Virus record (IMG/VR): IMGVR_UViG_2737471845_000031
Coordinates: 1 to 35,029 of that record
Strand: one strand, 5' to 3'
DNA: 35,029 nt
From: a virus
Taxonomy: Duplodnaviria > Heunggongvirae > Uroviricota > Caudoviricetes
Below the pieces are notes generated by a model. The model was not told the origin of the DNA, ran no database searches, and saw only the letters and a list, made by a program, of their open reading frames with translations. A program made the position numbers and the translations under genes. Positions 1-34,117 of this stretch are shown here, in pieces. The stretch's first letter is position 1; every line of letters starts with the position of its first letter.

Positions 1-1122
1 TCACCAGTAAATATAAACTGCGCCATTTGCTCCGGCACCCGACTGACCCGTTGATGAATTAGGACATAATCCTGCACCGCCACCTCCAGGCCCAACTGCT
101 GATACCGCTTTTCCGTTAGCTGTATCTCTGAATGAACCTGCTCCTCCGGGGCCACCACCAGAACCACCATTACCAGCCCCCGATGCGGCAGAAGCAATGG
201 AACCTGGAGAACCTGGCCCAAGCGATGTATTAATTGTTCCCCCGACACCAACTGCGCCTAACCCTCCGGAAGGCTGGCCTCCGCTATAGCCTCCGGAAGC
301 TGACATGTAAGTCCCGAAACTGCTCGAGCCACCATTTTTACCGTTTACAGAAATACCAGACACAGGCGCACCACCGGCACCAACCGTAATCGAAACACTG
401 TTTATACCAGTTAAATCTACCAGTCCCTCAGCAACTCCGCCCCCACCACCTCCTCCGCCACATGTAACGGCTGAAGCGGTTGTTGAACCTATCCCTCCTG
501 ACGCACCGCCACCAATAACTTTGACGTAACATTTTCTTCCTTTGCGCAACTCTTCAGGAACAGTCCAGCTTGTTACTCCAGCCGTTGTGAAGGTAACCAG
601 ATTTCTGAACCCAAATGAACCTTCTCTCAAACCAAGGTTTTTGACAAACAGCGCAGGCTCAGGAATATCTGCGCCGTTCTGGTCTTTAGCCAGCTTTTCC
701 GCCAGCTTGTTCAGTACCGTAGTCGCAAAGTTTGGATCATTACCGAGAGCGTCAGCCAGCTCTTTAAGCGTATCCAGTGTCTCAGGGGCGCTGCCTGCAA
801 GTGCCGCAAGTGCTTTGGCCACAAACTCCGTCGTCGCCAGCTTTTTGCTGTTATCACCATTTGCAGGTGTAGGTGCTGTTGGTGTGCCGGTGAATGTCGG
901 ACTGGCTTTCGTCGCGTACTGGGTATGCGGGTCAACTGCCGCGATATGTGCAGCCAGGTCTGTTCCGCTTTTTTCGACCTTCTGTTTGAGGTATGACGTT
1001 CGGCTGGCCAGTTGTTTAGCCTGGCGGTTAGAAATTCCGTCAGGTCCGCCCAGAACGGGGTCAGAGACCTCAATCTGGTATATGCCGCTTTCCCACTGCG
1101 GGGTTTCGGGTAGATTTGCCAT
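1..1122 (-). CDS. tail fibre protein with Gly-rich C-terminal domain
   Basis: Complete 373-aa ORF (ATG 1122, stop at 1-3, GGGAGC RBS). Contains the conserved fibre motif PETLDTLKELADALGNDPNFATT found in P2 H / lambda Stf-type fibres. C-terminal ~170 aa is Gly/Ser-rich low complexity. Confidence 0.8.
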   Translation of the reverse strand: MANLPETPQWESGIYQIEVSDPVLGGPDGISNRQAKQLASRTSYLKQKVEKSGTDLAAHIAAVDPHTQYATKASPTFTGTPTAPTPANGDNSKKLATTEFVAKALAALAGSAPETLDTLKELADALGNDPNFATTVLNKLAEKLAKDQNGADIPEPALFVKNLGLREGSFGFRNLVTFTTAGVTSWTVPEELRKGRKCYVKVIGGGASGGIGSTTASAVTCGGGGGGGGVAEGLVDLTGINSVSITVGAGGAPVSGISVNGKNGGSSSFGTYMSASGGYSGGQPSGGLGAVGVGGTINTSLGPGSPGSIASAASGAGNGGSGGGPGGAGSFRDTANGKAVSAVGPGGGGAGLCPNSSTGQSGAGANGAVYIYW

Positions 1123-1124
1123 AA

Positions 1125-1703
1125 TTAACTGCTCCCGTGGTTGTAACTACCGTCATAACGGGTAGTACTGTTGTATCGAATGGCGACAGACTGATATTCC
1201 AGACTTGCCAGATGACAGCGAGCCGGAGCAAAGGCAGCAAGCGTCTGACGTAACAGCGCCGCCTGATCGTTAGTGATGGGTTGTTGAAGGATGACGCGAT
1301 AGACTGCCCAGGCTTGTGCATCACCATGGACGAAAAGCCCGTTGTACGTGTGTCTGCCGTCATAGCCAATCTGCCCCGTACCTTCAATCAGATCCACTTC
1401 GCCGAAGCCAAAACGGCGGATAATTTCCCGGATTGACCACGGTGTTCCTTTATAGCGGTGTAGCTCGATAGCGGATTTGATAAGCATGCGGCGTACATCG
1501 TCCGATTCCGCCAGTTCCCAGCCATCGCCGAACAGCGAGAACTGCTCGCCAAGCCATGGCAGCGCGGAACTGTCGACAATATCGACGAGACCGACCATCA
1601 GTACGCTCAGGTCGATGTTATCCAGCCGTCCGGCCAGTCTTCCCAGCGTTCTGAGACTGATATCACCCTCAAGCGGTGGCGGGAGTTGTAGCACCTCAGC
1701 CAT
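1125..1703 (-). CDS. baseplate protein (P2 gpI / Mu gp48-like)
   Basis: 192-aa ORF immediately upstream of the tail fibre and downstream of the J-like gene, with stop/start coupling; position and size match the P2 gpI-type baseplate protein. Confidence 0.6.
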   Translation of the reverse strand: MAEVLQLPPPLEGDISLRTLGRLAGRLDNIDLSVLMVGLVDIVDSSALPWLGEQFSLFGDGWELAESDDVRRMLIKSAIELHRYKGTPWSIREIIRRFGFGEVDLIEGTGQIGYDGRHTYNGLFVHGDAQAWAVYRVILQQPITNDQAALLRQTLAAFAPARCHLASLEYQSVAIRYNSTTRYDGSYNHGSS

Positions 1704-2799
1704 CGGACACCCCGGTCATGTTAAGAGTGATCGCCGTACAGTTTGCCCATTCGTTTTCTGCCACCACCCTCAGTGCCGGTGTCACCAGTTCGACCTGGTA
1801 CACCCCGGAAACGGACAACACGCTGATAATCTGGCTGGGAACAATATCGCGCCCCAGCGTGGCGGTACGGGATGCCACCCAGTTCTGTATGGCGCTGTTA
1901 GCGTTGTCCTTTACCAACCTTGCATCCTGATCACGATAGATCGTAATCCTGGCTTCAATGGTGTAATCCACCTGAACAGGTGTTTTAGCCCGCACGGTAT
2001 CAGTGAGTGGTCTGACTTTTTCGTCAGAACAGAAACTCTCTACCAGAGTGAGGATACTGCTGTCCGGCAGACCAGTGCTGAGCAGCGGATACAGCTCGAC
2101 AGTGCCGGGAGCGGGAGAAAGAACAGCAACGTCGACAATGCCGGGATGCGCCCCCATAGCATGAAAACGGTATGCACCACGGCTTCCGGCATTGGTGAAT
2201 GACTCCGGGGCCAGCCTGATACGCTCCCGGAGCCGGTCATCGTCTTCCTGCTCTGAACCGCCAGAGCTGGCCGTCAGATTGGTCACCAGCAGGTCAATGT
2301 TATCAATCTCATCGAGTAACTGACTGACCTGCGCCGGTTGCCAGCCGTTGCCAGCGGTACCCGGCTCGGTACAGGTGGCCGTGACATTGACCAGCAGCAA
2401 TCCGGCCTTCAGCACCACATCTGTATCGGTGGCAAAAATAATACTGTCGGAAGCGCTGACGCGGGTGCCTGCCGGGATCAGCACATCAATGGCCAGTGCC
2501 TCATCCACAGAGAACTGAAGTGTGGTGGTGGCAGGCTGCGCAGCAAGGCGGTATACACCGACCAGTTCACCGAGGTAATCAATCATCGGCTCACGGGAAA
2601 AAGCGACCAGATTCTGCTTCGCCGCCTCCTGTACTGCCACCCTGACCAGCATTTCGCGATAGGCCCACAGGTCAATCAGCAGACGTTCAGCCTGTGCCGG
2701 GTACAGCGTTTTTCCGGTATCCTCTTCATACTTCGCAATCATTTCTGCCGTGATTTTATCGGCATCGCGTTCAATAAAATCGGGTTCTGTCAGCGCCAT
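1696..2799 (-). CDS. baseplate J-like protein (Mu gp47 / P2 gpJ family)
   Basis: 367-aa ORF in the conserved position between the gp25-like wedge gene and the gpI-like gene; size and order typical of Baseplate_J proteins. Confidence 0.75.
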   Translation of the reverse strand: MALTEPDFIERDADKITAEMIAKYEEDTGKTLYPAQAERLLIDLWAYREMLVRVAVQEAAKQNLVAFSREPMIDYLGELVGVYRLAAQPATTTLQFSVDEALAIDVLIPAGTRVSASDSIIFATDTDVVLKAGLLLVNVTATCTEPGTAGNGWQPAQVSQLLDEIDNIDLLVTNLTASSGGSEQEDDDRLRERIRLAPESFTNAGSRGAYRFHAMGAHPGIVDVAVLSPAPGTVELYPLLSTGLPDSSILTLVESFCSDEKVRPLTDTVRAKTPVQVDYTIEARITIYRDQDARLVKDNANSAIQNWVASRTATLGRDIVPSQIISVLSVSGVYQVELVTPALRVVAENEWANCTAITLNMTGVSDG

Positions 2800-3137
2800 A
2801 GCAGTTCCTGAGTACGGGGTTGTCCGTCTGAGCCTTTCCAGCTCACCCGGAGCGTAAGATGTTCGCCGTCGACGGCGGGTTTAACCGACATAAGCTGGCA
2901 GCGGGGTTCCCAGCGCCTGATGGCATCGACGGATTCGCGAACCACATGCGGAATGGCCCGGTCGACAGGCCAGTCGATATAAAGGTGCAGATTGCTGCCG
3001 AACTCCGGGCGATGCGGGTCGCTGCCGCGGGGAGTCCGCAGGATGATCTGGATGGACTGCCGGATATCATCCAGCCCCCGGACGATTTCGCCGGGAGCCT
3101 GCAGAGCTGGTTGCCAGAATACTGAGGTCGTTTTCAT
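2790..3137 (-). CDS. baseplate wedge protein (GPW / T4 gp25-like)
   Basis: 115-aa ORF with the gp25/GPW-type motif region DDIRQSIQIILRTPRGS; sits between the gpV-like and gpJ-like genes. Confidence 0.75.
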   Translation of the reverse strand: MKTTSVFWQPALQAPGEIVRGLDDIRQSIQIILRTPRGSDPHRPEFGSNLHLYIDWPVDRAIPHVVRESVDAIRRWEPRCQLMSVKPAVDGEHLTLRVSWKGSDGQPRTQELLWR

Positions 3138-3193
3138 GGAGGCAGTATTGCCCCCGGGAAGTAAGCGCCGATATTAAAGGCGTTTAAGAAGGT

Positions 3194-3721
3194 TCAATGG
3201 GAATGGTGATTAGAGTTCTGACCATCAGCAAATATGTTACCCGTTGCATGGGCGCTTCCGTTGATTTCCAGATCACCATTGAGTGTCGCGGGGCCGTTGA
3301 TCGTGGTAACTCCCGTGAGGTCGAGGTTTTTCCCTTTGAGAGAGATATCAGCGGCAACCTCCACCACGATACGCTCAATACCTCCTCTGACCGTCAGCGT
3401 ATGGGTCGCGCGGTTATAACTGAACTCCGCGCCATCAGCGTATTTCGTACCCCGGACGTTTTTATCACTGAACGGCGGTTTATCGACGTCTGAGTACACC
3501 GCGCCCAGAATAACACCATCCTCGCCGTTGGCATCGAGCAGCACCTCAACCTGCTCCCCCACGTCAGGGAGCCAGTAATCCTTGTTATCCTGGGTATTGC
3601 GCTGTAGCACGTTAAGCCAGTTTGTGCGCAGATTATCGCATTCAGGCAGACGAACGCGGGCCTGAACCCTGTCGGCATCAACGGCACTGACCGTACCGAT
3701 CTGACGGGTGACACCAGTCAT
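3194..3721 (-). CDS. baseplate assembly / spike protein (P2 gpV-like)
   Basis: 175-aa ORF, Gly-rich beta-type sequence, placed between the gpD-like hub and gp25-like wedge genes as in P2/Mu tail modules. Confidence 0.7.
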   Translation of the reverse strand: MTGVTRQIGTVSAVDADRVQARVRLPECDNLRTNWLNVLQRNTQDNKDYWLPDVGEQVEVLLDANGEDGVILGAVYSDVDKPPFSDKNVRGTKYADGAEFSYNRATHTLTVRGGIERIVVEVAADISLKGKNLDLTGVTTINGPATLNGDLEINGSAHATGNIFADGQNSNHHSH

Positions 3722-4872
3722 TTTTTCTTCTCCTTAATCACCGTCGATGTACTGCCATCCGGGTGATAAACCGTGAGTTTCTGAGTTTTTTGTTTTTTCC
3801 CTCTTGTGACTGGCCCCCGTGCCACTTCCAGCTCTGTGGTGTAGCCGCTGTTACGCTCAAACGCATGGCGGGCAGTGATTATCAGCCATGGACCGGATAA
3901 CTGTCCAAAGCCCACCAGTTCAATTTTGTTGCCTGCTGTCAGTTGAGGCGTTCCCGTCAGCGTCAGGGAGCCGTTCTGCTGGTATTCGTTATGTCTGGCC
4001 AGTGCTGAATCCGCTTTAATCCGGGCACTGTCCGGGTCGCTGACGCGGCTGTTAACTTTAAGTGAGTCAGCGCTGGTAACCTTACCGCCTTTGAGCTTTT
4101 TGTCGCTTTCACGGGTACCACCATCAGCTTCGTAGACGATCAGTTTTTTACTGCTGCTTTTCTGGTGTTTTACCTTTGCAGATTTATAGACCCGGTTGAT
4201 GGTGTCACGCAGGGAAAAGCAGGCCACATCCTGCGGTTTTAACTGCCTGACCGGCTCCTGACTGCGCAGTGTGGCCAGATGAGAAAAAATCAACTGGTCA
4301 CTGACCACTTTCACTGCATAACCATACTCGCTGGCCAGCCGGCGCAGAAAACCCACGTCGGTTTCAGCATACTGGGTCACCCGGTCGATTCTGATGGACT
4401 CAATGCTGCCCACCAGTTTCAGCCGGTGCTTTCTGGCAATCCGCCCCGCAACAGCTGCCAGCGTGGTGTTCTCAAAACCACGGCTGGATTTAGTCCGCAG
4501 AGCACTGTTAACCGAGGTGGCCACCCCACGGATAGCGACAACGGACGCGGGCGAACTCACTTCGATCTCGTCTATTGAGAATGTACCGCAGGACAGCAGT
4601 TTCTCGCCCTGATAACCCATTTTCAGCGTCAGCGTGTCACCCTTGCCCGGATACCACTTATCCAGCCAGCGGCCATCGGTGTCGTCCAGCTCCACCTCAA
4701 TGGTATCGGACTCATTTTTGATGTTATCGCTCCAGACCACACGGGTGACATAAGGCGCGATATCAGAGGTGATGTTTTTCTGCAGATACCACAGAGTGAA
4801 TACCGGCGTCAGCACATCGCTGACGCCGGTTAACGCTGATGTGGCTTGCGCAGTACTGTTTATCTCAGCCAT
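3718..4872 (-). CDS. tail/baseplate hub protein (P2 gpD / Mu P-like)
   Basis: 384-aa ORF following the tail protein X-like gene; size and position match the 'late control D' tail proteins. Confidence 0.65.
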   Translation of the reverse strand: MAEINSTAQATSALTGVSDVLTPVFTLWYLQKNITSDIAPYVTRVVWSDNIKNESDTIEVELDDTDGRWLDKWYPGKGDTLTLKMGYQGEKLLSCGTFSIDEIEVSSPASVVAIRGVATSVNSALRTKSSRGFENTTLAAVAGRIARKHRLKLVGSIESIRIDRVTQYAETDVGFLRRLASEYGYAVKVVSDQLIFSHLATLRSQEPVRQLKPQDVACFSLRDTINRVYKSAKVKHQKSSSKKLIVYEADGGTRESDKKLKGGKVTSADSLKVNSRVSDPDSARIKADSALARHNEYQQNGSLTLTGTPQLTAGNKIELVGFGQLSGPWLIITARHAFERNSGYTTELEVARGPVTRGKKQKTQKLTVYHPDGSTSTVIKEKKK

Positions 4873-5075
4873 GGGGCAATATCCTCTTCTGTACGGGCAT
4901 CTTCAGCCTCAATAACCGGGATCAGTAACAACAACCCGGAGGGCAGCACCGGCGTAATGGCCACGTGCGGATTGGCTGCAATAATCCGGGGATAGCCCAG
5001 CGGGTCACCGTAGTACTGCCATGCCAGCGAATCCCAGCGCTCTCCGTCACGGGTAATATGTTCAAGAAACATCAC
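4860..5075 (-). CDS. tail protein X (LysM-like)
   Basis: 71-aa ORF; motif GERWDSLAWQYYGD...IIAANPHV...LPSG resembles the LysM-like P2 gpX family. Confidence 0.6.
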   Translation of the reverse strand: MMFLEHITRDGERWDSLAWQYYGDPLGYPRIIAANPHVAITPVLPSGLLLLIPVIEAEDARTEEDIAPWLR

Positions 5076-5956
5076 ACACTCCTCGTCAGTATTCTGGCGG
5101 CCATTGCACTTAATCCCGGAGACATGCGGTTGAATGCTGTGCCGGCGGCGTTAAGCTGCCCGGAAACGGTATCCAGAGCACCTGCAATATTTCTTTTGTC
5201 CACACCACTCAGCGCCGACTGCGCCTGCTGTACATACGTGGCTGCCTCACTGGCTGTTCTGGCCAGACTGATGGCATCGGGCATGGATTCAGAGAGTGCA
5301 TTAAACGCCGGAATACTTTTCCCCAGAGCGCCGGATATATTACCCAGTCCGCTCATCAGTCCCGGCACACGGGTCAGCGCGACAACGGGGTTACCCTTCA
5401 TTTTCTGCGCCACCCGAACGGCACTGATAGTGGTCTGGAGTACAGACTGCGCCTGTTTCGCATAGTTGACGCCGTTACGGACGAACTGCGCCACCCCGGA
5501 AGGCGATGGAACAGCACCCGATACAGCTCCGGCACCGGGAACCTGCCTGCGTATTGCCGGCGGTTGCAGAGGATTTTTCGGGTCACCGGTGTATTCCCGG
5601 AGAGACACGGTGGCACTGACAGCCAGCACGTTACCGGTGCTGTCTGTCTGCTCGCTGGTTGCGGTCACATCGGTAATCACGAACCAGCCGCGATAGTCAC
5701 CGTTGCCGAAGACCAGCGCCAGTGCCTGATGGGCCTTCATGGCTGTTCGCACTCTCGCCAGCTCCACGTCGGGCACACAATAATGCTGATGGAAGACCAG
5801 GCTTATCTGGATTTCGTCCAGCCTGTCGCCGACAAACTGCAGGCCGGGTTTACCCTCGATGCGGGCATGCTCCGCATAATCGACGCCAAACGTGGCCTCG
5901 AAGCCGTCCCAGTAGGTAATCAGTTCAAACTCAATATCACCCAGTACGGCAAACAT
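5072..5956 (-). CDS. tail protein downstream of tape measure (Mu N / DNA-circulation-like position)
   Basis: 294-aa ORF directly after the tape measure gene with stop/start overlap; the Mu N position. Family assignment is tentative. Confidence 0.45.
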   Translation of the reverse strand: MFAVLGDIEFELITYWDGFEATFGVDYAEHARIEGKPGLQFVGDRLDEIQISLVFHQHYCVPDVELARVRTAMKAHQALALVFGNGDYRGWFVITDVTATSEQTDSTGNVLAVSATVSLREYTGDPKNPLQPPAIRRQVPGAGAVSGAVPSPSGVAQFVRNGVNYAKQAQSVLQTTISAVRVAQKMKGNPVVALTRVPGLMSGLGNISGALGKSIPAFNALSESMPDAISLARTASEAATYVQQAQSALSGVDKRNIAGALDTVSGQLNAAGTAFNRMSPGLSAMAARILTRSV

Positions 5957-25744: not shown

Positions 25745-25768
25745 GTGAGTTTTTCTGCACTCTTTAAG

Positions 25769-25797: not shown

Positions 25798-25844
25798 CTA
25801 TCACACATAAGGCAAACATCATTGCATCAACAAAGGAGACAACG

Positions 25845-26033
25845 ATGACTGCAGAACAAGTCAAAGCTCTCTTCCGCCAGCGCGGGATCACTTTCACCCG
25901 CTGGGCAGAAGAAAACGGCTACAACCGCAATGAGGTATACCGCGTTCTCAATGGGCAGACCAAAGCCCGTTACGGTAAATCCCATGAAATCGCCGTGAAG
26001 TTGGGGCTGAAATCAACAGCTCAGGCAGCCTGA
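25845..26033 (+). CDS. Cro/Ner-like small DNA-binding regulator
   Basis: 62-aa ORF, AAGGAG RBS 6 nt upstream, first gene of the early operon divergent from the repressor; helical basic protein. Confidence 0.55.
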   Translation: MTAEQVKALFRQRGITFTRWAEENGYNRNEVYRVLNGQTKARYGKSHEIAVKLGLKSTAQAA

Positions 26034-26085
26034 AGATTTTGAGTCTTTGTAAAAGGTTATCACATATCGCAAAAGAGGTATGCAG

Positions 26086-26394
26086 ATGAGTAAGACGAAT
26101 GTTTCAAGCTCCGGCAGTCGCATCCTCCGGGTACTCAAAGCGCTGCGCGGTCATGCCCTGAACGGTATTTCCAACGGTGAACTGGCGGCAGCACTGCACG
26201 AGTCACTGGCAAACATCAACCGGGCACTCAACACCCTCATTGAAGAAGGGTTGGCCCTGAAACTGGAAAACGGGCGTTTCGCGCCGGGCATCCAGTTACT
26301 GCAGATCGCTATGGCCCACAGTAACGAGATGGCACGTGCACAGGATCGCATTAACGAAATCAACCAACGTGTCATTTCAGGTAGTCGTTTGTAA
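26086..26394 (+). CDS. winged-helix DNA-binding protein
   Basis: ~102 aa from ATG 26086; HTH-like segment ISNGELAAALHESLANINRALNTLIEEGLA. Confidence 0.45.
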   Translation: MSKTNVSSSGSRILRVLKALRGHALNGISNGELAAALHESLANINRALNTLIEEGLALKLENGRFAPGIQLLQIAMAHSNEMARAQDRINEINQRVISGSRL

Positions 26395-26404
26395 GGAGTA
26401 ATAA

Positions 26405-27316
26405 ATGGGACGCACCAAATCACCGATTAACACTGAACTGAACGCCGAGGTACCGCTGTCGGATGATCTCAATGTCAGTCTGAACGCCATGACACAGCAT
26501 CGCATGGAGATCATGCAGCAGTTTGGCGATGGTCAGCCCTATGAGCGTGATCGCATAGTTCATGAGGCTCGGTTTTATATGGCACAGAGCGCTGAGGCCA
26601 TGCTGGAAGCAGGTAAACGACTTATTATTCTCAAAGAAAATGAACCACACGGGGACTTTGTTGGAATTGTAGAAGAACAACTTGGTCTGCATGTGCGCGC
26701 AGCACAACGAATGATGAAAGCATCTTTGAAATACCTTTCACCAAAACTAGAGCCAAAAGCGACAACGTTGTCGCTTTTAGGTAAGGCAAAATTATTTGAA
26801 CTTGTTGCTGAAGATGACGACGACCTTGCTGAACTGGCCGACGGCGGCACAGTCGCAGGACTGACGCTTGACGATGTTGATCGCATGTCAGTACGTGAAT
26901 TGCGTCAGGCCCTGCGCGAAGCGCGCGAAACCAACGCAGCACAACAGCGCGTACTCGCCGACAAAAATGAAAAAATAGACTCACTCTCCACCAGACTGGA
27001 GAAGAAATCCCGTATTCAGCCGCCTGAGCCTGATGAGGAGGTTAAGAAGCTGCGGGCGGAAGTGACAGCATTAGCGGTTGAGGCGGAATCTGCCATCGCC
27101 GTTCGACTGTCCAGCGCTTTTGAGACACTGTGCGCATATTGTGCTGAAAACATGATTGATACCCCCAGAGACTTCATGGCAGGCCTGGTCTGTCAACTGG
27201 AAAGCACAGCGCGTAGCCTGCGCTCCACATTTGACCTGCCGGACGAGCCAACAGGCGATGTCGCGCCTTCATGGCTGACTGAGCCGACGCCACAGATTAA
27301 CGGGCTGGAGGCATAA
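26405..27316 (+). CDS. hypothetical early protein with acidic and coiled-coil regions
   Basis: 303-aa ORF, AAGGAG RBS 6 nt upstream; located just before the transposase gene. Confidence 0.5.
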   Translation: MGRTKSPINTELNAEVPLSDDLNVSLNAMTQHRMEIMQQFGDGQPYERDRIVHEARFYMAQSAEAMLEAGKRLIILKENEPHGDFVGIVEEQLGLHVRAAQRMMKASLKYLSPKLEPKATTLSLLGKAKLFELVAEDDDDLAELADGGTVAGLTLDDVDRMSVRELRQALREARETNAAQQRVLADKNEKIDSLSTRLEKKSRIQPPEPDEEVKKLRAEVTALAVEAESAIAVRLSSAFETLCAYCAENMIDTPRDFMAGLVCQLESTARSLRSTFDLPDEPTGDVAPSWLTEPTPQINGLEA

Positions 27317-27319
27317 CCA

Positions 27320-29089
27320 ATGAATGCTGCCCTGACTGAACGACTGGTTTATGTCGCCCGCGCGGCACGTGACGCGGGGCATGGTAAACGCGGTGCAGTA
27401 TACGACGCTGCCTGTGCTGAACTTGGCATGTCCCGCGCCACTCTGCTGCGCAGGCTGAAGGAGGTCTCTGTGACTGATAAACGCAAAAAACGCGCCGATG
27501 CCGGGCGCAGCGCCCTGACCCGCGACGAAGCCGCGCTGATATCTGCCACACTGCGTGAGGCCACCCGCAAGAACGGTAAGCGTCTCTATTCCATCGCAGA
27601 TGCAGTGGAAACCCTGCGGGCTAACGGCTTTATCACCGCAGGCAGAACAGATGAAACCACCGGTGAGTTTTTCCCGTTGTCTGAAGATGCCATCAGCCGT
27701 GCCCTGCGTAACTATGGCCTGCACCCGGAACAACTGGATGCCCCTGCACCACATACCGAAGTGGCCAGTCTGCATCCCAATCATGTCTGGCAGATTGACG
27801 CCTCACTCTGCACGCTTTACTACCTGAGCAATGGACATAAAGGGCTGCAGGTGATGGACAGCGCGAAGTTCTACAAGAACAAGCCCGCTAACCTTGCCCG
27901 TATCGCCAGTGACCGCGTGTGGAGTTACGAGATTACCGACCATGCCAGCGGCTGGATTTACGTTGAGTATGTGACGGGGGCGGAATCCGGTGAGAACCTG
28001 TGTTCTGTGCTTATCAACGCCATGCAGGAGCGTGGCGGCGCAGACGTGCTGCACGGCGTGCCGAAAATACTCTATCTCGACCCCGGCTCGGCAAACACCG
28101 CGGGTATGACGAAAAACATGTGTCGCTCACTGGGCATCGACCTGATAGCGCACAAGCCGCATAACGCCCGCGCCACCGGACAGGTGGAAAAGGCGCGTGA
28201 CATTATCGAACGCAAGCTGGAGCCGGGTCTGAAGTTCCGGCCGGTTCACAGTCTGGAAGAACTCAACGCGCTGGCCGCGAAATGGCGCAGCCACTTTAAC
28301 GCCACGGCTGTTCACAGCCGCCACGGTAAAACCCGCACGGATATCTGGCTGAAGATTACTGCTGAGCAGCTGAAAAAAGCGCCTTCCGTTGAGGTATGCC
28401 GTGAACTGGCTGTGGCGGCACCAGAACTCCGCAAAGTCACGCCAAAACTTCGTGTCTCGTTCCGGGGCACTGAATTTGACGTATCAACGGTACCGGGCGT
28501 ACTGGTCGGTGAAAAACTGATGATTACCCGTAACCCGTGGCGCAGCGATGTGGCACAGGTGGTTCTGACCGGTGAGGACGGCCACGAGACGTTCTTCCTG
28601 GTCGAAGAGGTCAGAAAGAACGAGTTTGGCTTTGCTGAAGGCGCGGCGGTATTTGGCGAAAGTTACAAAGCCCTGCCGGAAACACCGGCACAGACGGCGG
28701 CAAAAGAAACCGAAGCGCTGGTCACCGGTACAGACAACGCCGCAGATGCAGCTGCCGCACGCAAGGCGAAGGCGCTGCCGTTCGGCGGGCGGCTTGACCC
28801 GTATAAACATATTGATGACGCCACACTTCCGGCCTATATGCCGAAGCGAGGTCAGGCCTCTGACGTACGCGGACCGCGCACTGAACAGCGTCCCATGACT
28901 CATGTGGAGGCCGCGAAAGCCCTGCGCGGGAAGTTCAGCGCCAACGGCCTTACCTGGACGCCGGAACATTACCGCCAGTTAACGGCACAGTACCCGGACG
29001 GCGTACCGGAAGCTGCACTGGATGAAGTCATGGCCACGCTGACCACGCCGGCCCGCAGCAGCGTTATCAGCATTGTTAACGGCAACTAA
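27320..29089 (+). CDS. phage DDE transposase (rve-type catalytic core)
   Basis: 589-aa ORF with candidate catalytic D (HVWQIDASL), D (LYLDPGSAN) and E (ATGQVEKA), the last pair ~36 residues apart (D,D-35-E); N-terminus unlike MuA. Confidence 0.85.
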   Translation: MNAALTERLVYVARAARDAGHGKRGAVYDAACAELGMSRATLLRRLKEVSVTDKRKKRADAGRSALTRDEAALISATLREATRKNGKRLYSIADAVETLRANGFITAGRTDETTGEFFPLSEDAISRALRNYGLHPEQLDAPAPHTEVASLHPNHVWQIDASLCTLYYLSNGHKGLQVMDSAKFYKNKPANLARIASDRVWSYEITDHASGWIYVEYVTGAESGENLCSVLINAMQERGGADVLHGVPKILYLDPGSANTAGMTKNMCRSLGIDLIAHKPHNARATGQVEKARDIIERKLEPGLKFRPVHSLEELNALAAKWRSHFNATAVHSRHGKTRTDIWLKITAEQLKKAPSVEVCRELAVAAPELRKVTPKLRVSFRGTEFDVSTVPGVLVGEKLMITRNPWRSDVAQVVLTGEDGHETFFLVEEVRKNEFGFAEGAAVFGESYKALPETPAQTAAKETEALVTGTDNAADAAAARKAKALPFGGRLDPYKHIDDATLPAYMPKRGQASDVRGPRTEQRPMTHVEAAKALRGKFSANGLTWTPEHYRQLTAQYPDGVPEAALDEVMATLTTPARSSVISIVNGN

Positions 29090-29100
29090 GGAGGGAAACA

Positions 29101-30266
29101 TGCTGGTACTGAAGCAGCAACTGAAAGAGGCCCGTATTCCACAGGCGGTGGTGGCGAGAGCTGTCGATGTTTCTGAGGCCACGCTGGCCCAGATTGTGAA
29201 TCATAACGCGTGGCCCCGCACCAGCCCCGGAGAAGTGCGCCGGCGTCTTGCGTCCTGGCTGGAAAGTCAGGGGATTGATACAGCGAAGAGTTTTGATGCT
29301 GTACAGGGCGCGGCCACGCCCCGTACAGCGGGTACCACAGATAAAACGAGCCTCAGTGAGGAAGAGAATATGTTACTCAAAAAACAGGTGTTATTTCCAG
29401 CAACCAAAAAAGCGTTTGGTCTTTTCCGTGACCCGTTCGCCGACGAAGCCATGCAGGGTTCTGATGATGTGTTCACCACCCCGGACATTCGCTACGTGCG
29501 TGAGGCGCTGTACCAGACAGCCCGTCATGGCGGGTTTATGGCTGTCATCGGTGAGTCCGGTGCGGGTAAATCCACGCTGCGCCGTGACCTGACTGAACGT
29601 ATCAACCGCGAGAATGCGCCGGTAATTATTATCGAGCCATACGTCATCGCCATGGAAGACAACGATGTGAAAGGGAAAACCCTGAAGGCAGCAGCGATTG
29701 CCGAAGCCATTATCAGTACCATCGCACCACTGGAAAGCATCAGACGCAGTCAGGACGCCCGCTTTCGCCAGCTGCATCGCGTCCTGAAAGACAGCCGCCA
29801 GGCGGGGTTCAGCCACGTTCTGGTGATTGAGGAAGCCCACAGTCTGCCCGTTCCGACACTGAAACACCTCAAACGCTTTTTTGAGCTGGAGTCCGGTTTC
29901 AAAAAACTGCTGTCCATCGTGCTGATTGGCCAGCCGGAACTGGCGACAAAACTGTCTGAACGCAATATGGAAGTCCGTGAAGTCGTTCAGCGCTGTGAGG
30001 TGGTCGAACTTCTGCCTCTCGACAATAACCTTGAAGAGTTTCTGACGTTCAAACTGCAACGGGCCGGTAAACAACTGACGGACATTATGGACGCCGGCGC
30101 AGTGGATGCCATACGTGCCCGCCTGAGCAATCCGGGAAGTCATCGTAAAAACAGGGTCAGCCTGCTGTATCCGCTGGCCGTCAGTAACCTGGTGATAGCC
30201 GCCATGAATCTGGCCGCTGAAATCGGGGTTCCACAGGTCAACGCTGACGTTGTCAAAGGGGTTTAA
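29101..30266 (+). CDS. transposition ATPase (AAA+ target-DNA activator, MuB/TnpB-like role)
   Basis: ~388 aa from ATG 29101 (GGAGGG RBS); N-terminal HTH-like region, Walker A GESGAGKST, Walker B HVLVIEEAH; directly downstream of the transposase. Confidence 0.8.
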
Positions 30267-30268
30267 TA

Positions 30269-30538
30269 ATGAAATCCATCACAGGTATCAACCAGCAAAT
30301 CAGCAAAGTGCAGTCAGCCATTATGGCGCTTATGGCAACGAACACGGATGTACAAAGCATCACCATCAGGGGCAATAAACCTGTCATCCGCGTTTCCCGG
30401 AGTGCGCATTGCATGCGCATGCTTGAACAGGGGAAAGCCAGTTATCTGTATACCGGTCATGACCACAGGGGACATTTCCGTCAGGGCGTTTTCGAACTGC
30501 ACGGCTGTCGCGTCGTGTGGCCGGAATCTTTGTGGTAA
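30269..30538 (+). CDS. hypothetical protein
   Basis: 89-aa ORF with AAGGGG RBS, between the ATPase and gam. Confidence 0.4.
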   Translation: MKSITGINQQISKVQSAIMALMATNTDVQSITIRGNKPVIRVSRSAHCMRMLEQGKASYLYTGHDHRGHFRQGVFELHGCRVVWPESLW

Positions 30539-30565
30539 TCAGCACAACCGGAGAAATCATAAAAT

Positions 30566-31096
30566 ATGGCAAAAAGTACAAAAGGGGCAAAACGTATCAA
30601 GTCCGCAGCGGCACTCTGGGTACCGGGGACACGCGAAGAGGTCATTGAGGGCATCAGACTGCTCGGTGACGCACAACGTGAACTGGTCAGGGCTGAAACA
30701 GAAATGAATGACGCCATTGGCGATATCACCGCACGTTATGCCCCGCTCACCGAGAGCCTGAAAAAACGCATGTCAGAACTGCAGTCCGGTATCCAGACAT
30801 GGTGTGAGGCACACCGTGATGAACTGACCGGCAACGGGAAGGTGAAGTTCGCTAACCTCACCACCGGCGAGGTGCAATGGCGAAACCGTCCGCCATCAGT
30901 CAGTATCCGTGGAGCGGATAATGTTATTGAACTACTGAGACGTCTGGGGCTTGAGCGCTTTATTCGTGTAAAAGAGGAAATAAATAAAGATGCCATTCTG
31001 AATGAAAAAGAGGCCGTGAAAAATATTCCCGGCATTACCATAAAAAGTGATATTGAGGATTTTTCAATAATTCCTTTTGAGCAGGATGTGCAGTAA
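30566..31096 (+). CDS. gam: host-nuclease inhibitor Gam (Mu Gam family)
   Basis: 176-aa ORF closely resembling Mu Gam along its length (KRIKSAA..., PPSVSIRG..., GLERFIR..., IEDFSIIPFEQ). Confidence 0.85.
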   Translation: MAKSTKGAKRIKSAAALWVPGTREEVIEGIRLLGDAQRELVRAETEMNDAIGDITARYAPLTESLKKRMSELQSGIQTWCEAHRDELTGNGKVKFANLTTGEVQWRNRPPSVSIRGADNVIELLRRLGLERFIRVKEEINKDAILNEKEAVKNIPGITIKSDIEDFSIIPFEQDVQ

Positions 31097-31193
31097 ACAC
31101 ACCACGTTAATTATTTAATAAAAACATTTTCTTTTTTATTCCGGCGTCAGCGCCGTGGGCTTCTGCACGCCGGAAACAGAGGAGAATTAAATT

Positions 31194-31388
31194 ATGATAT
31201 TTAAATGTATTCAGTGCGAGAGGGATATAACAGCCCTGCGTTTTCACAGCGCCATCGCCGTGATGTCCGGTAAATACCACGTACCTGCAGTACGCGTCAC
31301 CCTGGTCTGTCCGTACTGCAGTCAGCATTTTTCGGCAGATGTGCCCGTTATGGAATTCTCCCGCCCTGACAGGGAGGAAGCGCAATGA
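31194..31388 (+). CDS. small zinc-ribbon protein
   Basis: 64-aa ORF with GAGGAG RBS and two Cys pairs (CIQC ... CPYC). Confidence 0.4.
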   Translation: MIFKCIQCERDITALRFHSAIAVMSGKYHVPAVRVTLVCPYCSQHFSADVPVMEFSRPDREEAQ

Positions 31389-31657
31389 TTACCCCACAGG
31401 AAGCACATCAGCGCACCCGCGCCCTTGTTGAACGGTATCTCAACGAGTGTGAATGCCGTGACCTCACCGATATCATGTGCGCCCTGACGGCGTTAATCAG
31501 CATGGCCACGCAGGCCATTGTGGCGACTAACGGAAAGGAGGCCGCCCTGCAGATACTAGTGAACACACTCACCCACGCGGCAGAGCACGAGGTGCCGTAC
31601 CGGATGGAAATCACTGCAGAAGGCGACCTGCACATCATTGTTGACCGGAAGCACTGA
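31385..31657 (+). CDS. hypothetical protein
   Basis: 90-aa ORF translationally coupled to the upstream gene. Confidence 0.4.
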   Translation: MITPQEAHQRTRALVERYLNECECRDLTDIMCALTALISMATQAIVATNGKEAALQILVNTLTHAAEHEVPYRMEITAEGDLHIIVDRKH

Positions 31658-31666
31658 GGGCGCGGC

Positions 31667-31963
31667 ATGACACGGAACACCATACTCACCCGCACCGCCC
31701 TCTACCGTCTGGCCCTGCAGCGTTTCGGGCCGGACGCACAGGCCCTGAAACTGACAGAAGAGGCCGCTGAACTGGCGGCCAGTGCTGCCCGCAATCTGAA
31801 CGGACAGGGCAGCGAAAGCGACCTCGCGGCAGAGCTGGCAGACGTGGAAATCATGACAGAGCAATTGCGCCTTCAGGGGATGGACCGGCTGATTGACTTC
31901 CACAAACAGAAAAAACTGGAACGTCTGGCTGCACGACTGGGCGTGATTTACACGAACGAGTAA
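31667..31963 (+). CDS. MazG-like nucleotide pyrophosphohydrolase domain protein
   Basis: 98-aa all-helical ORF with MazG-type pattern LKLTEEAAEL ... ELADVEIMTEQL ... K..LERL. Confidence 0.5.
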   Translation: MTRNTILTRTALYRLALQRFGPDAQALKLTEEAAELAASAARNLNGQGSESDLAAELADVEIMTEQLRLQGMDRLIDFHKQKKLERLAARLGVIYTNE

Positions 31964-31977
31964 CCGGGAGGCATTCA

Positions 31978-32193
31978 ATGGCTGACATACTCAGGGAAAT
32001 CACCGCATGGATACTGATTCTTACTGGCCTGGCGACATGCCTCAGTGCGGGGGCAGCCCTGGCTGCCCTGCTGATGCACATAACAACACAGTGGTTATGG
32101 GAAAAGCTTAAAGCAGCATACAGCCTGAAAGAGCTGTCCGACGCTGTCCGGGCATGGAAACGGCAGAAAAATACCGGAGATACAGAACAATGA
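31978..32193 (+). CDS. small membrane protein
   Basis: 71-aa ORF with one TM segment (AWILILTGLATCLSAGAALAALL). Confidence 0.35.
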   Translation: MADILREITAWILILTGLATCLSAGAALAALLMHITTQWLWEKLKAAYSLKELSDAVRAWKRQKNTGDTEQ

Positions 32194-32873
32194 CAGACCA
32201 GAATAAACACATTGAGAAACTGAAAAAGTTGCTGGCGCTGGCCGCATCCGGCAACCCGCACGAGGCCGCTCTGGCACTGCGCCGAGCCCGTAAACTGATG
32301 GATGTTCACGGCATCACACATTCCGACATTGCTATGAGTGATATTGATGAAACCATCAGTCATTACTGGCCGACAGGCAGTCTCCGTCCACCGCGCTACA
32401 TGCTGGGCCTGATGAACATCATCCGCGAGGCATTTGGTGTTAACTCCATCATTCACCCCGGCACGCATCCGTCTGTGGGGTTCTACGGTAACCGGGAACG
32501 AGCGGCACTGGCTGCGTACACCTGGGAAGTGCTGGTCCGCCAGCTGAAAAAGGCGCGTCAGCAGTATATCAGCGCACAGAACAAAAGAATAAAAAACGCC
32601 ACCCGTACCAGCCGTGGAGACCAGTTTGCTGAAGGCTGGGTACTGGCCGTTATCAGTAAAATACAGTCCTTTGCCCTGACCGATGATGAGCGTGAACTGA
32701 TGCAACAGTGGCTGGAACATAAATACCCGCAAACGCAAACCACCAGGGCGCGTCAACCGGGAAGAAGCCGCAATGGCGACGCCTCGCGCTATGCGGGGTT
32801 TCGTGAAGGGCAGAACGTCAGACTGCACCGCCCGGTCAGTGGGCAGGAACAACAGAAACTGGAGGCCAGATGA
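32190..32873 (+). CDS. conserved phage protein (DUF2786-like N-terminal motif)
   Basis: ~227 aa from ATG 32190 (GGAGA RBS); N-terminal IEKLKKLLALAASGNPHEAALALRRARKLM motif typical of this prophage family. Confidence 0.5.
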   Translation: MTDQNKHIEKLKKLLALAASGNPHEAALALRRARKLMDVHGITHSDIAMSDIDETISHYWPTGSLRPPRYMLGLMNIIREAFGVNSIIHPGTHPSVGFYGNRERAALAAYTWEVLVRQLKKARQQYISAQNKRIKNATRTSRGDQFAEGWVLAVISKIQSFALTDDERELMQQWLEHKYPQTQTTRARQPGRSRNGDASRYAGFREGQNVRLHRPVSGQEQQKLEAR

Positions 32874-33100
32874 TTACGCTATCAGGTAACAGCCGGAAAT
32901 TAAAAGCCTGCCGAATATCTGCCAGATACCTTTTTGCCCGCGCCTTTTTTAAGAACGTCAGGCCGGGGATCACAATTGGTGTTATTGCCGGACGCGAACA
33001 GGTTGAAAAATACATGTCAGGTGCATGGTGGAATAACGACCCTGTCATTGCTGCCCGTAATATTCATATCAGTTGGGGGGATATTCAGAATGACTGCTGA
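32870..33100 (+). CDS. hypothetical protein
   Basis: 76-aa ORF coupled to the upstream gene; weak support. Confidence 0.3.
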   Translation: MITLSGNSRKLKACRISARYLFARAFFKNVRPGITIGVIAGREQVEKYMSGAWWNNDPVIAARNIHISWGDIQNDC

Positions 33101-33305
33101 ATCTGTTGTATGTGCCCTGTTCTGGTATTGTTTTGTCGGTTGGTGTACTGCTGAACTGCACCGCCGTTCAGGGTTTTATTCACGTTACAGTGGTGCCGGC
33201 TACTGGATTAGCTGGTCGGTGATGTTCCTGTGCTGGCCTGTGGCGCTTCCTTTATATGTCGATTATATCGGTGGCGCAGGTAAAAGGAGCAACGATGATG
33301 ACTAA
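33090..33305 (+). CDS. small membrane protein
   Basis: ~71 aa from ATG 33090; two hydrophobic segments. Confidence 0.35.
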   Translation: MTAESVVCALFWYCFVGWCTAELHRRSGFYSRYSGAGYWISWSVMFLCWPVALPLYVDYIGGAGKRSNDDD

Positions 33306-33747
33306 ACAACGTCTTATCCAGCTCATTCATATTGCCCGTAATGAACTGGGTATGGATGAAGACACCTACCGCCAGATGTTACAGGGGCTGACCGGTAAAG
33401 CCTCAACCAAAGGAATGGATACCACACAACTAAACTGCGTGCTGGAATCCATGAAAAGGAAAGGCTTTCGCGTTAAGCCTGCCGGAAAAGCCAGCTCCGG
33501 TTTACCGCTGGATAACCATCCGCAGTCCAGGAAAATCCGTGCGCTATGGCTTGAAATGGCTGCTGCCGGCATTGTTCGTGACCGTTCAGAAAATGCATTA
33601 GCGCGGTGGATCAAGCGGGAAACGGGCATCAGCGCCCTGCGCTGGCTCAATACTGAACAGGCAAGCAGTGTTATTGAGAAACTGAAGAAGTGGCAGCACA
33701 GAGCTGCGGGAGTAAAACATGAGCGACCTGAATCAGTTTCGAAGTAA
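33295..33747 (+). CDS. gemA: GemA-like regulatory protein (Mu gp16 family)
   Basis: ~150 aa from ATG 33295 (AAGGAG RBS); N-terminus KQRLIQLIHIARNELGMDEDTYRQML typical of GemA/gp16 proteins; immediately upstream of mor. Confidence 0.7.
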   Translation: MMTKQRLIQLIHIARNELGMDEDTYRQMLQGLTGKASTKGMDTTQLNCVLESMKRKGFRVKPAGKASSGLPLDNHPQSRKIRALWLEMAAAGIVRDRSENALARWIKRETGISALRWLNTEQASSVIEKLKKWQHRAAGVKHERPESVSK

Positions 33748-34117
33748 AGGGCCGGAACTCCTGGTGGAGCTGGCACAGCATACCTCTGAGACCGTTCGCG
33801 AGATTATTGATATTGAGCCCGCAATTGCCGACCAGATTGGTCAGGCCGTCGCGAACCGAATGATGCAGGTCTGGGGCGGGCAAAACGTTTATTTCCCGAT
33901 GGGCATGGTATGGAAGGTCAGTCAGCGCGACCGGGAAATCTTCAGGGAGTTTAACGGACGCAACCACCACGAACTGGCCCGCAAGTTTGGTGTTTCGCTT
34001 CAGTGGGTCTACAGCGTGGTTAAGCGGGTCAGAAAAGAAGAACTGGATCGGATGCAGGGCAGGTTGTTTGATGAAGATCTGCCAGAGGAGACGAAAGACG
34101 TTAACAAATCCAGATAA
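33719..34117 (+). CDS. mor: Mor/C-family transcriptional activator
   Basis: 132-aa ORF with the Mor/C C-terminal HTH region FREFNGRNHHELARKFGVSLQWVYSVVKR; last gene of the early operon; the only Mor/C homolog in the window. Confidence 0.8.
   Translation: MSDLNQFRSKGPELLVELAQHTSETVREIIDIEPAIADQIGQAVANRMMQVWGGQNVYFPMGMVWKVSQRDREIFREFNGRNHHELARKFGVSLQWVYSVVKRVRKEELDRMQGRLFDEDLPEETKDVNKSR

Follow-up and report, generated by a model that had tools for sequence, protein, structure and literature searches.

Phage Mu carries its early, middle, and late genes on one strand of its gene map, with only the repressor gene opposed, and its target duplication is 5 bp. Burkholderia phage BcepMu (AY539836; Summer et al. 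2004) has the relatives phiE255, SalMu, PhotoMu, and ChromoMu; SalMu of S. Typhi has been named as such (PMC3417384). BcepMu was described as having two gene clusters and a Tn552-IS1604-type transposase and as lacking a fibre inversion system (PMC2771037). On its gene map, genes 1-13 form one cluster, in which Mor is outermost; the other, genes 17-52, contains the lysis, head, and P2-like tail genes. The Pseudomonas phage B3 group also uses a Tn552-related transposase, and the early operon of B3-like genomes is inverted relative to Mu (PMC5977238).

We analysed a 35,029-nucleotide stretch of viral DNA (the window) against these systems. The window very probably comprises the main part of one BcepMu-like transposable myovirus prophage of Escherichia coli that appears to be intact; it falls approximately 3.6-4.6 kb short of the fibre/invertase end and 196 bp short of the Mor end. 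The element would resemble Mu in lifestyle as a transposable, temperate myovirus of approximately 37-39 kb.

Gene order and relatives

The window has two arms that diverge from a central immunity region (Table 1). The late arm, comprising lysis, Mu-like head, and P2-like contractile tail genes, runs leftward on the minus strand from about 22.27 kb to position 1, with the holin gene first and the tail fibre gene last. The early arm runs rightward on the plus strand from 25,845 to Mor, and the two arms are separated by an immunity and accessory region of 3.6 kb. An earlier note had described late genes running leftward from 22.3 kb and early genes rightward from 25.8 kb, which agrees with the ORF directions and with the RefSeq annotation of a 99.81% identical copy. 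The note had also contrasted this layout with co-directional Mu and assigned it to the BcepMu/SalMu type; both points held, since all Mu genes except the repressor lie on one strand and BcepMu has the same two clusters. In tblastn comparisons, 35 of the 53 window genes matched BcepMu, strictly colinear and mirrored, whereas nine matched Mu. The central immunity region, the placement of GemA-Mor outermost in the early arm, and the order of the holin/SLT endolysin/Rz lysis cassette, Mu-like head, and P2-like tail were likewise shared with BcepMu.

Table 1. Positions of genes and sequence elements in the window.
Feature	Position	Strand	Remarks
Tail fibre gene	1-1122	-	373 aa ORF; stop codon at 1-3; N-terminal part 55% identical to BcepMu gp52
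Fibre-inversion crossover site TTTGTCAAAAACCTTGGTTTGAGAGAA	620-646	-	Core AAACCAAGGTTT at 629-640; sequence read
P2-like baseplate/tail: I, J, W/gp25, V, D, X, U-like gene, tape measure (5956-8421)	1125-8421	-	RefSeq names on JB2 copy; tblastn to BcepMu gp44-gp51, 40-62% identity, in order
Candidate late promoter element 4	3170-3187	-	Upstream of baseplate gene W
Tail assembly chaperone	8596-8937	-	Within 8596-11261
Candidate late promoter element 3	8984-9001	-	Upstream of tail chaperone gene
Small ORF	9029-9310	-	Within 8596-11261
Tail tube	9313-9834	-	68% identical to BcepMu gp40
Tail sheath	9834-11261	-	77% identical to BcepMu gp39
Head and connector module	11251-19884	-	Includes connector genes, DUF2190; RefSeq copy, tblastn
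Major capsid	12762-13715	-	
Protease/scaffold	13730-14845	-	
Candidate late promoter element 2	14901-14918	-	Upstream of protease/scaffold gene; same position as Mu P_I
Mu G-like gene	15060-15518	-	
Mu F-like gene	15521-16342	-	Protein 48% identical to Mu's
DUF935 portal	16323-17816	-	
TerL	17816-19339	-	62% identical to BcepMu, 49% to Mu
TerS	19336-19884	-	
Lysis cassette and small late genes	19881-22266	-	Includes membrane proteins; match BcepMu gp21-gp26
Rz-like gene	20515-21270	-	
SLT transglycosylase endolysin	21155-21886	-	
Holin	21883-22233/22266	-	
Candidate late promoter element 1 TTAACGCGCTTTAAAATC	22284-22301	-	CTGTCTCC 23 nt on; upstream of holin
Central accessory region	22364-24415	mixed	Lower G+C (~47%); four ORFs
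Accessory ORF 1	22364-23107	+	phrog_3787 (unknown function)
Accessory ORF 2	23083-23487	-	
Accessory ORF 3	23486-23701	+	
Accessory ORF 4	23951-24331/24415	-	
Orphan Dam-type (D12 class) N6-adenine DNA methyltransferase	24445-25290	+	RefSeq start 24526; PF02086 1.5e-27; PADLOC MTase_II 1e-112
Predicted cI/DicA-like HTH_3 repressor	25406-25897	-	HTH_3 3e-7; DicA-like 1e-10; 36% identical to BcepMu gp17
Candidate early promoter	25769-25797	+	TTGACT, 17-nt spacer, CATAAT; 48 nt upstream of first early gene
Early regulator region	25845-27316	+	Matches BcepMu gp16 (46%), gp10 (44%)
Ner-like HTH	25845-26033	+	
Winged-helix regulator	26080-26394	+	
DUF3102-like protein	26405-27316	+	Conserved early
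Transposase	27320-29089	+	589 aa; rve-type DDE core D160, D254, E290
AAA+ (AAA_22, ExeA-like) transposition ATPase	29100-30266	+	AAA_22 2e-20; phrog_296 'DNA transposition protein'; 59% identical to BcepMu gp08
Semi-essential early region	30269-33305	+	Several small ORFs
Gam	30566-31096	+	PF07352 5.5e-41; 63% identical to Mu Gam
DUF2786/DUF7168 protein	32154-32873	+	
GemA	33298-33747	+	PF06252 1.3e-40; 44% identical to BcepMu gp02, 36% to Mu GemA
Mor	33719-34117	+	PF08765 1.1e-43; 56% identical to BcepMu gp01, 31% to Mu Mor
Cargo ORF	34232-34864	+	210 aa
Cargo ORF	34868-35029	-	53 aa

At the nucleotide level, 30% of the window aligned with BcepMu at 67.5% identity, which is below the genus-level criterion; judging from these comparisons, the kinship lies at the level of proteins and architecture. 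Features that set the E. coli element apart from BcepMu are a Mu-type Gam, a Dam methylase, and, among its relatives, a serine invertase with as many as six crossover sites, whereas the SSB, HU, and acyltransferase genes of BcepMu were not found in the window. The four central accessory ORFs had no match in Pfam, NCBIfam, or PADLOC. The repressor gene is transcribed in the late-arm direction and overlaps the first early gene head-to-head.

Positions 616-35,029 matched the prophage of E. coli JB2 without gaps (99.81% identity). The closest deposited phage was PhiKM (PQ738613), an isolated Escherichia phage filed under Bcepmuvirus, with approximately 94% nucleotide identity, and Klebsiella phage KP12 clone 2 (OM835952) was 86% identical to the window. 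These phages, JB2, and the RefSeq-annotated E. coli prophages represent either the same element or relatives at the species level, and their genes follow one order throughout. Differences between copies fall in the fibre tip (window 1-615), in parts of the central accessory region, and in the cargo past Mor. The cargo stretch at 34232-35029 was covered in only 114 of 641 matching genomes.

Transposition genes

Alignment with the BcepMu, PhiKM, and KP12 proteins showed D160, D254, and E290 of the transposase to be invariant, with 35 residues between D254 and E290, as expected from the D,D-35-E core that the earlier note had recognized. The note had considered only the N-terminus to be unlike MuA, which proved too narrow. 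In Pfam, the only match was rve (PF00665, E=1e-8), apart from an HTH_8 hit at residues 30-48 that stayed below threshold; the four MuA domains (DDE_2, HTH_Tnp_Mu_1, HTH_Tnp_Mu_2, and Mu-transpos_C) were not found, and BLASTP against MuA gave no similarity (E=0.45), indicating that the whole protein, including its catalytic core, is non-MuA. The transposase was 68.5% identical to BcepMu gp09, a Tn552/IS1604-like protein that, as here, is followed by an ExeA-like AAA+ ATPase. This ATPase is the predicted functional counterpart of MuB, although BLASTP detected no similarity between the two. As in Tn552/IS481-family transposases, an N-terminal helix-turn-helix accompanies the rve DDE core of the protein. 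The relation to Tn552 is taken from the literature, and the sequence comparison was made with IS481 transposases, giving approximately 26% identity over about 360 aa (E~1e-12) and an NCBIfam IS481 hit of E=1e-18, below the cutoff. In contrast to IS481 transposases, the protein has a C-terminal extension of about 250 aa and works for a 38-kb virus that also encodes an accessory AAA+ ATPase.

The earlier note had called Gam, GemA, and Mor Mu-type, and their Pfam matches were clear; GemA and Mor close the early operon. Gam had no tblastn match in BcepMu. These proteins, together with TerL, portal, F, and G homologues and a Gin-type recombinase acting on an invertible fibre segment, are common to Mu and the element, as is the presence of several late promoters (candidates here). 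The shared proteins and the fibre inversion system could suggest a true Mu-like phage of the Muvirus lineage in which recombination had inverted the early operon. This origin is highly improbable, and the transposase comparison contradicts it: in place of MuA and MuB, the element has an rve transposase and an AAA_22 ATPase unrelated to them in sequence. The tblastn counts favour BcepMu, the element has a P2-type tail, its early arm runs against the late genes, its target duplication is 6 bp instead of 5 bp, and it has one Mor/C paralogue where Mu has two.

The B3 group provides a second comparison, since its transposases were 56-57% identical to that of the window and its inverted early operon is likewise part of a genome whose left and right arms are separated by regulatory genes. 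However, B3 is a siphovirus, whereas the tail sheath, tube, and P2-type baseplate encoded in the window form a contractile tail; the transposase is nearer to that of BcepMu, and synteny with BcepMu spans the whole late arm. A B3-like phage is therefore a very poor candidate, and the BcepMu-like assignment is preferred.

Ends and insertion sites

Near-identical copies occur at many unrelated places in the chromosome, flanked by a 6-bp target duplication. The earlier note had proposed searching beyond both sides for terminal repeats and a target-site duplication, and both were present in these copies. Their termini are TG...CA, and each holds two G(A/C)GATAAAY repeats, one approximately 11-20 bp and the other approximately 33-43 bp from the tip; the TG...CA ends of BcepMu likewise carry two G(A/C)GATAWWT repeats each, with identical spacing from the tip. 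The right end (...TGATCA; end motif ...CATTTATCTCATGTCTGATCA) lies 196 bp past the window, and the left end (TGATGCG...) lies left of position 1, beyond the invertase and the invertible fibre segment. Within the window, the terminal motif GAGATAAAT was not enriched and no end was recognizable, as the note had stated along with the stop of the fibre gene at the window edge. Its placement of the element end near 34.2 kb was not borne out, because about 1.1 kb of further prophage DNA, including two more ORFs, follows Mor.

A single pair of related ends enclosed the entire 37.7-38.9 kb in four complete genomes. The copies were inserted at fepE/fepC, LysR/inaA, yhfW, and kefF, and three carried 6-bp target duplications (ACAGGA, GCTAGT, and ACAGGA). 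When kefF was rebuilt with a single ACAGGA, the resulting empty site was 100% identical over 240 nt to sequence from other E. coli. A further 16 metagenome junctions all ended in ...TGATCA, with a different flank in each. A 6-bp repeat with TG-CA ends has been described as the footprint of B3/Tn552-family transposable phages (PMC8705779).

The shared ends, the 6-bp duplication, and the empty site indicate one element rather than two. The earlier note had named two separate elements, for example a defective prophage remnant beside an unrelated transposon, as the case against its reading. Here these would be a defective P2/Mu-like structural remnant (1-22.3 kb) and an unrelated rve-transposase transposon or island (25.8-34.1 kb). 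The arms do differ in ancestry (P2-like tail and Mu-like head versus an IS481/Tn552-kind transposase), and the centre is lower in G+C. Nevertheless, both arms occur together in BcepMu, phiE255, PhiKM, and KP12, and the copies inserted as one unit with the same two ends at different sites, without enrichment of the terminal-repeat motif inside the window, leaving this arrangement with almost no credibility.

The JB2 copy lacks a target duplication because its two flanks derive from different loci, showing that such copies can be rearranged. The completeness of the window's own copy was deduced from its relatives. Since the window lacks both ends, its fibre tip is unlike that of all colinear copies in complete genomes, and rearranged copies such as JB2 exist, it could be a decayed or truncated, non-inducible remnant; this is unlikely. 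All 53 ORFs are open, and the match to JB2 is free of gaps. Moreover, the window begins and stops exactly at gene boundaries, suggesting that a larger sequence was trimmed to give the window, and not that the prophage was truncated. An intact BcepMu-like prophage thus remains the favoured reading.

Fibre tip, candidate promoters, and proposed life cycle

Downstream of a Gin/Cin/Pin-type crossover site, the distal part of the fibre gene (1 to about 628) forms a variable tip cassette; the core of this crossover site has its sole match in the window at the position listed in Table 1. JB2 has six such sites at fibre cassettes adjoining a serine recombinase; the window itself contains neither an invertase nor a fibre assembly gene. 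Window 1-615 is missing from the otherwise identical JB2 prophage and occurs in invertible segments of pinE-type prophages, whereas no complete E. coli genome in the collection had this tip joined to the prophage in this orientation.

The candidate early promoter matched 10 of 12 positions in a consensus scan and may drive the early arm. A candidate late-promoter motif was found at four sites in the window, each in a late-arm intergenic gap, with a search pattern built from the same four sites that the search then returned. The motif is conserved in KP12 and occurs upstream of the BcepMu holin gene gp21, with a related site upstream of BcepMu gp49, the counterpart of gene W; a role as late promoters is inferred.

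In a lysogen, the cI-like repressor would silence the divergent early promoter. Upon induction, the early operon would yield the Ner-like regulator, transposase, ATPase, Gam, GemA, and lastly Mor. Replicative transposition would be carried out by the transposase on the paired terminal repeats, with the ATPase on target DNA. Mor would turn on the four similar opposite-strand promoters (22.29, 14.91, 8.99, and 3.18 kb), leading to expression of the lysis, Mu-like head, and P2-like tail genes, followed by headful packaging from integrated copies. A Gin-like invertase encoded outside the window would swap fibre tips at the crossover site.

The right arm was present in approximately 640 of 5,426 complete E. 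coli genomes. The BcepMu-type prophage of E. coli is a known kind, common and already catalogued, and its identification here is correct and ordinary.

Gene Content of the Two Arms

Positions 616-35,029 of the window aligned with the prophage of Escherichia coli JB2 as a single ungapped block of 99.81% identity, so the JB2 RefSeq annotation could be transferred to the window (see the table below). In the six-frame ORF list of the window, minus-strand genes were unbroken from 22,266 to 1 and plus-strand genes extended from 25,845 to 34,117, the late and early arms being separated by a stretch of mixed orientation. Together with the JB2 annotation, this list bore out the divergent arrangement proposed in the earlier note, in which late genes run leftward and early genes rightward. 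The early cluster finishes with GemA and Mor at its outer end, and the opposite strand carries the repressor together with the genes for lysis, head, and P2-like tail. On the Mu map, in contrast, all genes except the repressor occupy one strand; co-directionality of the early, middle, and late genes, to which the repressor is the single exception, is a Mu trait that is absent from the window, as the note had also held. The fibre ORF has its stop codon at positions 1-3, in agreement with a fibre gene ending at position 1. The G+C content was approximately 0.56-0.60 in the arms, compared with approximately 0.47 at 23-26 kb and 0.48 at 34-35 kb, and no tRNA genes were found in the window.

Annotated and candidate features of the window
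Feature	Position in window	Strand	Basis
Late arm, lysis: holin, SLT transglycosylase, Rz-like protein	from 22.27 kb leftward	minus	JB2 RefSeq
Late arm, head: TerS (DUF3486), TerL, portal (DUF935)	next in order	minus	JB2 RefSeq
Late arm, head continued: Mu F-like and Mu G-like morphogenesis proteins, protease, capsid, connector proteins		minus	JB2 RefSeq
Late arm, tail: sheath, tube, chaperone, tape measure, P2 U/X/D/V/W/J/I-like proteins, fibre		minus	JB2 RefSeq
Early arm, first half: two small DNA-binding proteins, conserved 303-aa protein, "integrase catalytic domain" protein, ExeA-family ATPase		plus	JB2 RefSeq
Early arm, second half: Gam, small ORFs, DUF2786 protein, gp16/GemA-family protein, Mor		plus	JB2 RefSeq
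Fibre ORF	1-1,122	minus	
Gin/Cin/Pin-type crossover site	620-646 (core 629-640)		
Tail chaperone gene with possible frameshift extension	8514-8937	minus	
Sheath gene	9,834-11,261	minus	
Central accessory ORFs (four)	22364-24415	mixed	
cI/DicA-like repressor	25,406-25,897		
Candidate early promoter TTGACT-17-CATAAT	25,769-25,797		
Overlap of repressor and first early gene	25845-25897		
ATPase gene	29,100-30,266	plus	
Right-end accessory ORFs: 210 aa (plus), 53 aa (minus)	34232-35029		
Candidate Mor-dependent late promoters	22284-22301, 14901-14918, 8984-9001, 3170-3187	minus	repeated motif

Gam, GemA, and Mor matched Mu-named Pfam families with E values of about 1e-40, confirming that they are Mu-type; their identities to the Mu proteins were 63%, 36%, and 31%, respectively. 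The two ORFs between Mor and the right end of the prophage are of lower G+C content and had no match in Pfam, NCBIfam, or PADLOC. This stretch was covered in just 114 of the 641 matching genomes and therefore represents a position of variable cargo. The interval that separates the late arm from the Dam methylase contains four ORFs at approximately 47% G+C, and the sole library match there was that of the first ORF to phrog_3787, a family of unknown function. Searches of the central and right-end accessory ORFs with PADLOC, Pfam, and NCBIfam yielded nothing beyond the Dam methylase and the repressor.

The terminal codons of the tail chaperone gene are GCC GGG GGA GAT TGA, past which a +1/-2 frame stays open for about 30 codons to approximately position 8514; a run of G residues is located at approximately 8603-8607. 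A programmed frameshift may occur at this GGGGG run, in the manner of those annotated for the chaperone genes of Mu (-2) and BcepMu.

Transposase and Relationship to BcepMu

The 589-aa transposase contained rve as its sole Pfam domain, together with a sub-threshold Fis-type HTH at residues 30-48. Its catalytic residues are D160, D254, and E290, the latter two separated by 35 residues, and all three were invariant in an alignment with BcepMu gp09 and the corresponding proteins of PhiKM and KP12. BcepMu gp09, which was 68.5% identical across 98% of the length, displayed the same architecture in a Pfam scan (rve and a weak HTH_8), whereas the same scan of MuA returned DDE_2, HTH_Tnp_Mu_1, HTH_Tnp_Mu_2, and Mu-transpos_C. 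The BLASTP comparison with MuA was not significant (E = 0.45). The non-MuA transposase with a D,D-35-E core described in the earlier note was confirmed. A PDB search retrieved just marginal retroviral integrase cores (E of at least 0.007), with MuA not among the matches. Transposases of B3-group Pseudomonas phages were 56-57% identical to that of the window, and the nearest non-phage relatives were of the IS481 family (NCBIfam E = 1e-18, below the cutoff). In a tblastn search against plasmids, IS481-family transposases were approximately 26% identical (E of about 1e-12) and staphylococcal Tn552 was absent among the matches listed; the link between this transposase and Tn552 thus rests on the literature.

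The ATPase gene lies directly downstream of the transposase gene, and its product contained AAA_22 (2e-20) and was 59% identical to BcepMu gp08. AAA_22 is present in MuB as well, and BLASTP of the window ATPase against MuB was not significant (E = 1.6). The hallmarks of Muvirus, namely the MuA domains and MuB (Phage-MuB_C), were not found in the window proteins.

As shown by megablast, Escherichia phage PhiKM, which GenBank files under Bcepmuvirus, was approximately 94% identical over most of the window, and Klebsiella phage KP12 clone 2 approximately 86% across most of it. When the 53 window proteins were searched by tblastn, 35 matched BcepMu in strictly colinear, mirrored order, including the sheath at 77% identity (BcepMu gp39, annotated as P2 FI-like) and TerL at 62%, whereas only nine matched Mu and none of these matches was to A or B. 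On the BcepMu map, genes 1-13/16 occupy one strand and finish with GemA and Mor at the end of the genome; the strand opposite this early cluster carries the repressor, the lysis and head genes, and the P2-like tail genes. The BcepMu/SalMu-type layout named in the earlier note is therefore supported by both the colinearity and the map. Lavigne et al. described this two-cluster layout and placed the BcepMu transposase in the Tn552-IS1604 family as a distant member (PMC2771037), and SalMu, PhotoMu, and ChromoMu are published prophage relatives of BcepMu (PMC3417384). The early operon is also inverted relative to Mu in B3-group genomes (PMC5977238). The window nevertheless differs from B3-like siphoviruses, whose tail is non-contractile and which have no sheath gene, in that a sheath gene is present.

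At the nucleotide level, blastn aligned 30% of the window with BcepMu at 67.5% identity, and megablast of the window against BcepMu gave no match. The current ICTV criterion for a genus is a nucleotide identity of at least about 70% across the genome, and by comparison with BcepMu the window falls below this limit for Bcepmuvirus in the strict sense. As judged from these comparisons, its relationship to BcepMu is one of architecture and protein homology and not of genus-level nucleotide identity. The E. coli lineage further differs from BcepMu in having a Mu-type Gam, which tblastn did not detect in BcepMu, an orphan Dam methylase, and a fibre inversion system, which BcepMu is described as lacking (PMC2771037).

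Prophage Ends and Insertion Sites

Neither prophage end was recognisable in the window, as had been noted before: the terminal repeat motif was no commoner inside the window than expected by chance, and in the copies both ends lay beyond it. The ends, which are outside the window itself, were read in copies 99.8-100% identical to its flanking parts. Junction alignment of the copies placed the right end, ...CATTTATCTCATGTCTGATCA, 196 bp past position 35,029, and the left end, TGATGCGCCGCGCGATAAA..., lies 3.6-4.6 kb to the left of position 1, past a serine recombinase gene and a block of fibre-tip cassettes. The element length computed from the record coordinates of the copies was 37.7-38.9 kb. 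Each end contained two G(A/C)GATAAAY motifs, approximately 11-20 and 33-43 bp from the tip; the two ends of BcepMu have the same two-motif arrangement and align with those of the E. coli copies. Among species-representative genomes, the right-end 21-mer was found in one MAG only.

The right 2 kb of the window was found in 640 of 5,426 complete E. coli genomes, and the host genes flanking the examined copies varied (fepE/fepC, a LysR gene/inaA, yhfW, and kefF). Three copies in complete genomes were surrounded by 6-bp direct repeats (ACAGGA, GCTAGT, and ACAGGA). When kefF was rebuilt with one ACAGGA, it was 100% identical over 240 nt to the intact kefF of other strains, and this empty site was present in 5,417 genomes. 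A further 16 metagenome junctions all stopped at ...TGATCA with unrelated sequence beyond, and more than 20 different right flanks were obtained in total. Both the 6-bp duplication and the diversity of insertion sites were measured on relatives and not on the window's own copy. A 6-bp repeat combined with TG-CA ends is the footprint of B3/Tn552-family transposable phages (PMC8705779). The end repeats and target-site duplication that the earlier note proposed to look for were thus present in near-identical copies, as TG...CA ends with repeated motifs and as 6-bp duplications. Alternatively, the two arms would belong to two separate elements lying side by side. This is contradicted by the flanks of the near-identical copies, which have a single shared pair of ends, 6-bp duplications, varied insertion sites, and an empty kefF site, and which point to one element.

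The ACAGGA duplication was common to two independent insertions, those of KY180 (copy L008/L004, in fepE) and MS1494 (copy L010/L007, in kefF), and in both it sits within AACAGGA(T/G)G. A target-site preference for ACAGGA was considered and rejected, as 17 further right flanks together with PK8275 and JB2 showed no consensus; the recurrence is probably a coincidence. The JB2 copy (L003, positions 3696 and 42557) had no target duplication. Its flanks derive from different loci, ygjJ and, across the element, a lambdoid prophage with IS100 nearby, and matches were found at two places in JB2; these observations suggest a later chromosomal rearrangement between two prophage copies.

Proposed Regulation, Candidate Late Promoters, and Possible Fibre Exchange

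Homology to BcepMu, B3, and Mu allows steps of regulation and transposition to be proposed for the observed gene content and ends. The cI/DicA-like repressor would hold the early promoter off; upon induction, the early operon would yield the transposase and ATPase for replicative transposition, Gam would protect DNA ends, and Mor, the last early gene, would switch on the late genes. The repressor gene overlaps the first early gene in head-to-head orientation, by 20 bp (RefSeq start) or 53 bp (longest ORF), so that the promoter of each must lie inside the other gene.

The late arm has only four intergenic gaps, and each of them contained, on the late strand, the sequence YTAA-N5-WTTAAWATC followed 23-24 nt later by CTG(Y)CTCC; these four motifs support the proposed role of Mor in switching on the late genes. 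Shuffling statistics for the motif are circular because the pattern was derived from the same four sites, and it is conservation across genomes that is the real evidence for this candidate promoter motif: all four sites are kept in KP12, and BcepMu has related sites upstream of both the holin and gene W. No description of the YTAA-N5-WTTAAWATC-N23/24-CTG motif was found in the literature searched.

One Gin/Cin/Pin-type crossover site, TTTGTCAAAAACCTTGGTTTGAGAGAA, was located in the window, inside the fibre gene. In the JB2 copy (L003 4408-7972), six crossover sites surround six small fibre-tip cassettes and adjoin the serine recombinase gene, which makes it a BcepMu-type phage with a system for multiple inversions. 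The fibre tip of the window (1-615) was at least 99% identical to a cassette in the invertible segments of unrelated pinE/e14-type prophages in 57 E. coli genomes, and in no complete E. coli genome of the collection was it joined to this prophage. These results suggest that fibre tips are exchanged between prophage families.

Tentatively, and with somewhat less than even confidence, we propose that the enterobacterial lineage is a stable hybrid in which a BcepMu backbone acquired a Mu-type Gam and Gin-type fibre inversion, and in which a single Mor-family activator drives the whole late arm via four near-identical promoters. If this is true, the motif would be the defining sequence of the Mor regulon in the Tn552-type transposable phages.

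The two-arm observation was confirmed and its BcepMu-type interpretation supported, and the element belongs to a kind that has been described before and is widely annotated. A two-arm layout with a Tn552-related transposase was reportedly described for BcepMu in 2004, and Toussaint and Van Gijsegem are said to have described it again in 2018 for B3-like and BcepMu-like prophages; hundreds of E. coli genomes in RefSeq already include the element itself in their annotation, and it has been deposited as phage PhiKM. As a discovery, therefore, it matters little, the layout and the element being known. For annotation purposes, its exact ends, 6-bp duplication, and candidate late promoters have now been located. 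This non-Mu transposable prophage occurs in roughly 12% of complete E. coli genomes and, because it disrupts genes such as kefF, fepE, and yhfW, is a real source of insertional variation.
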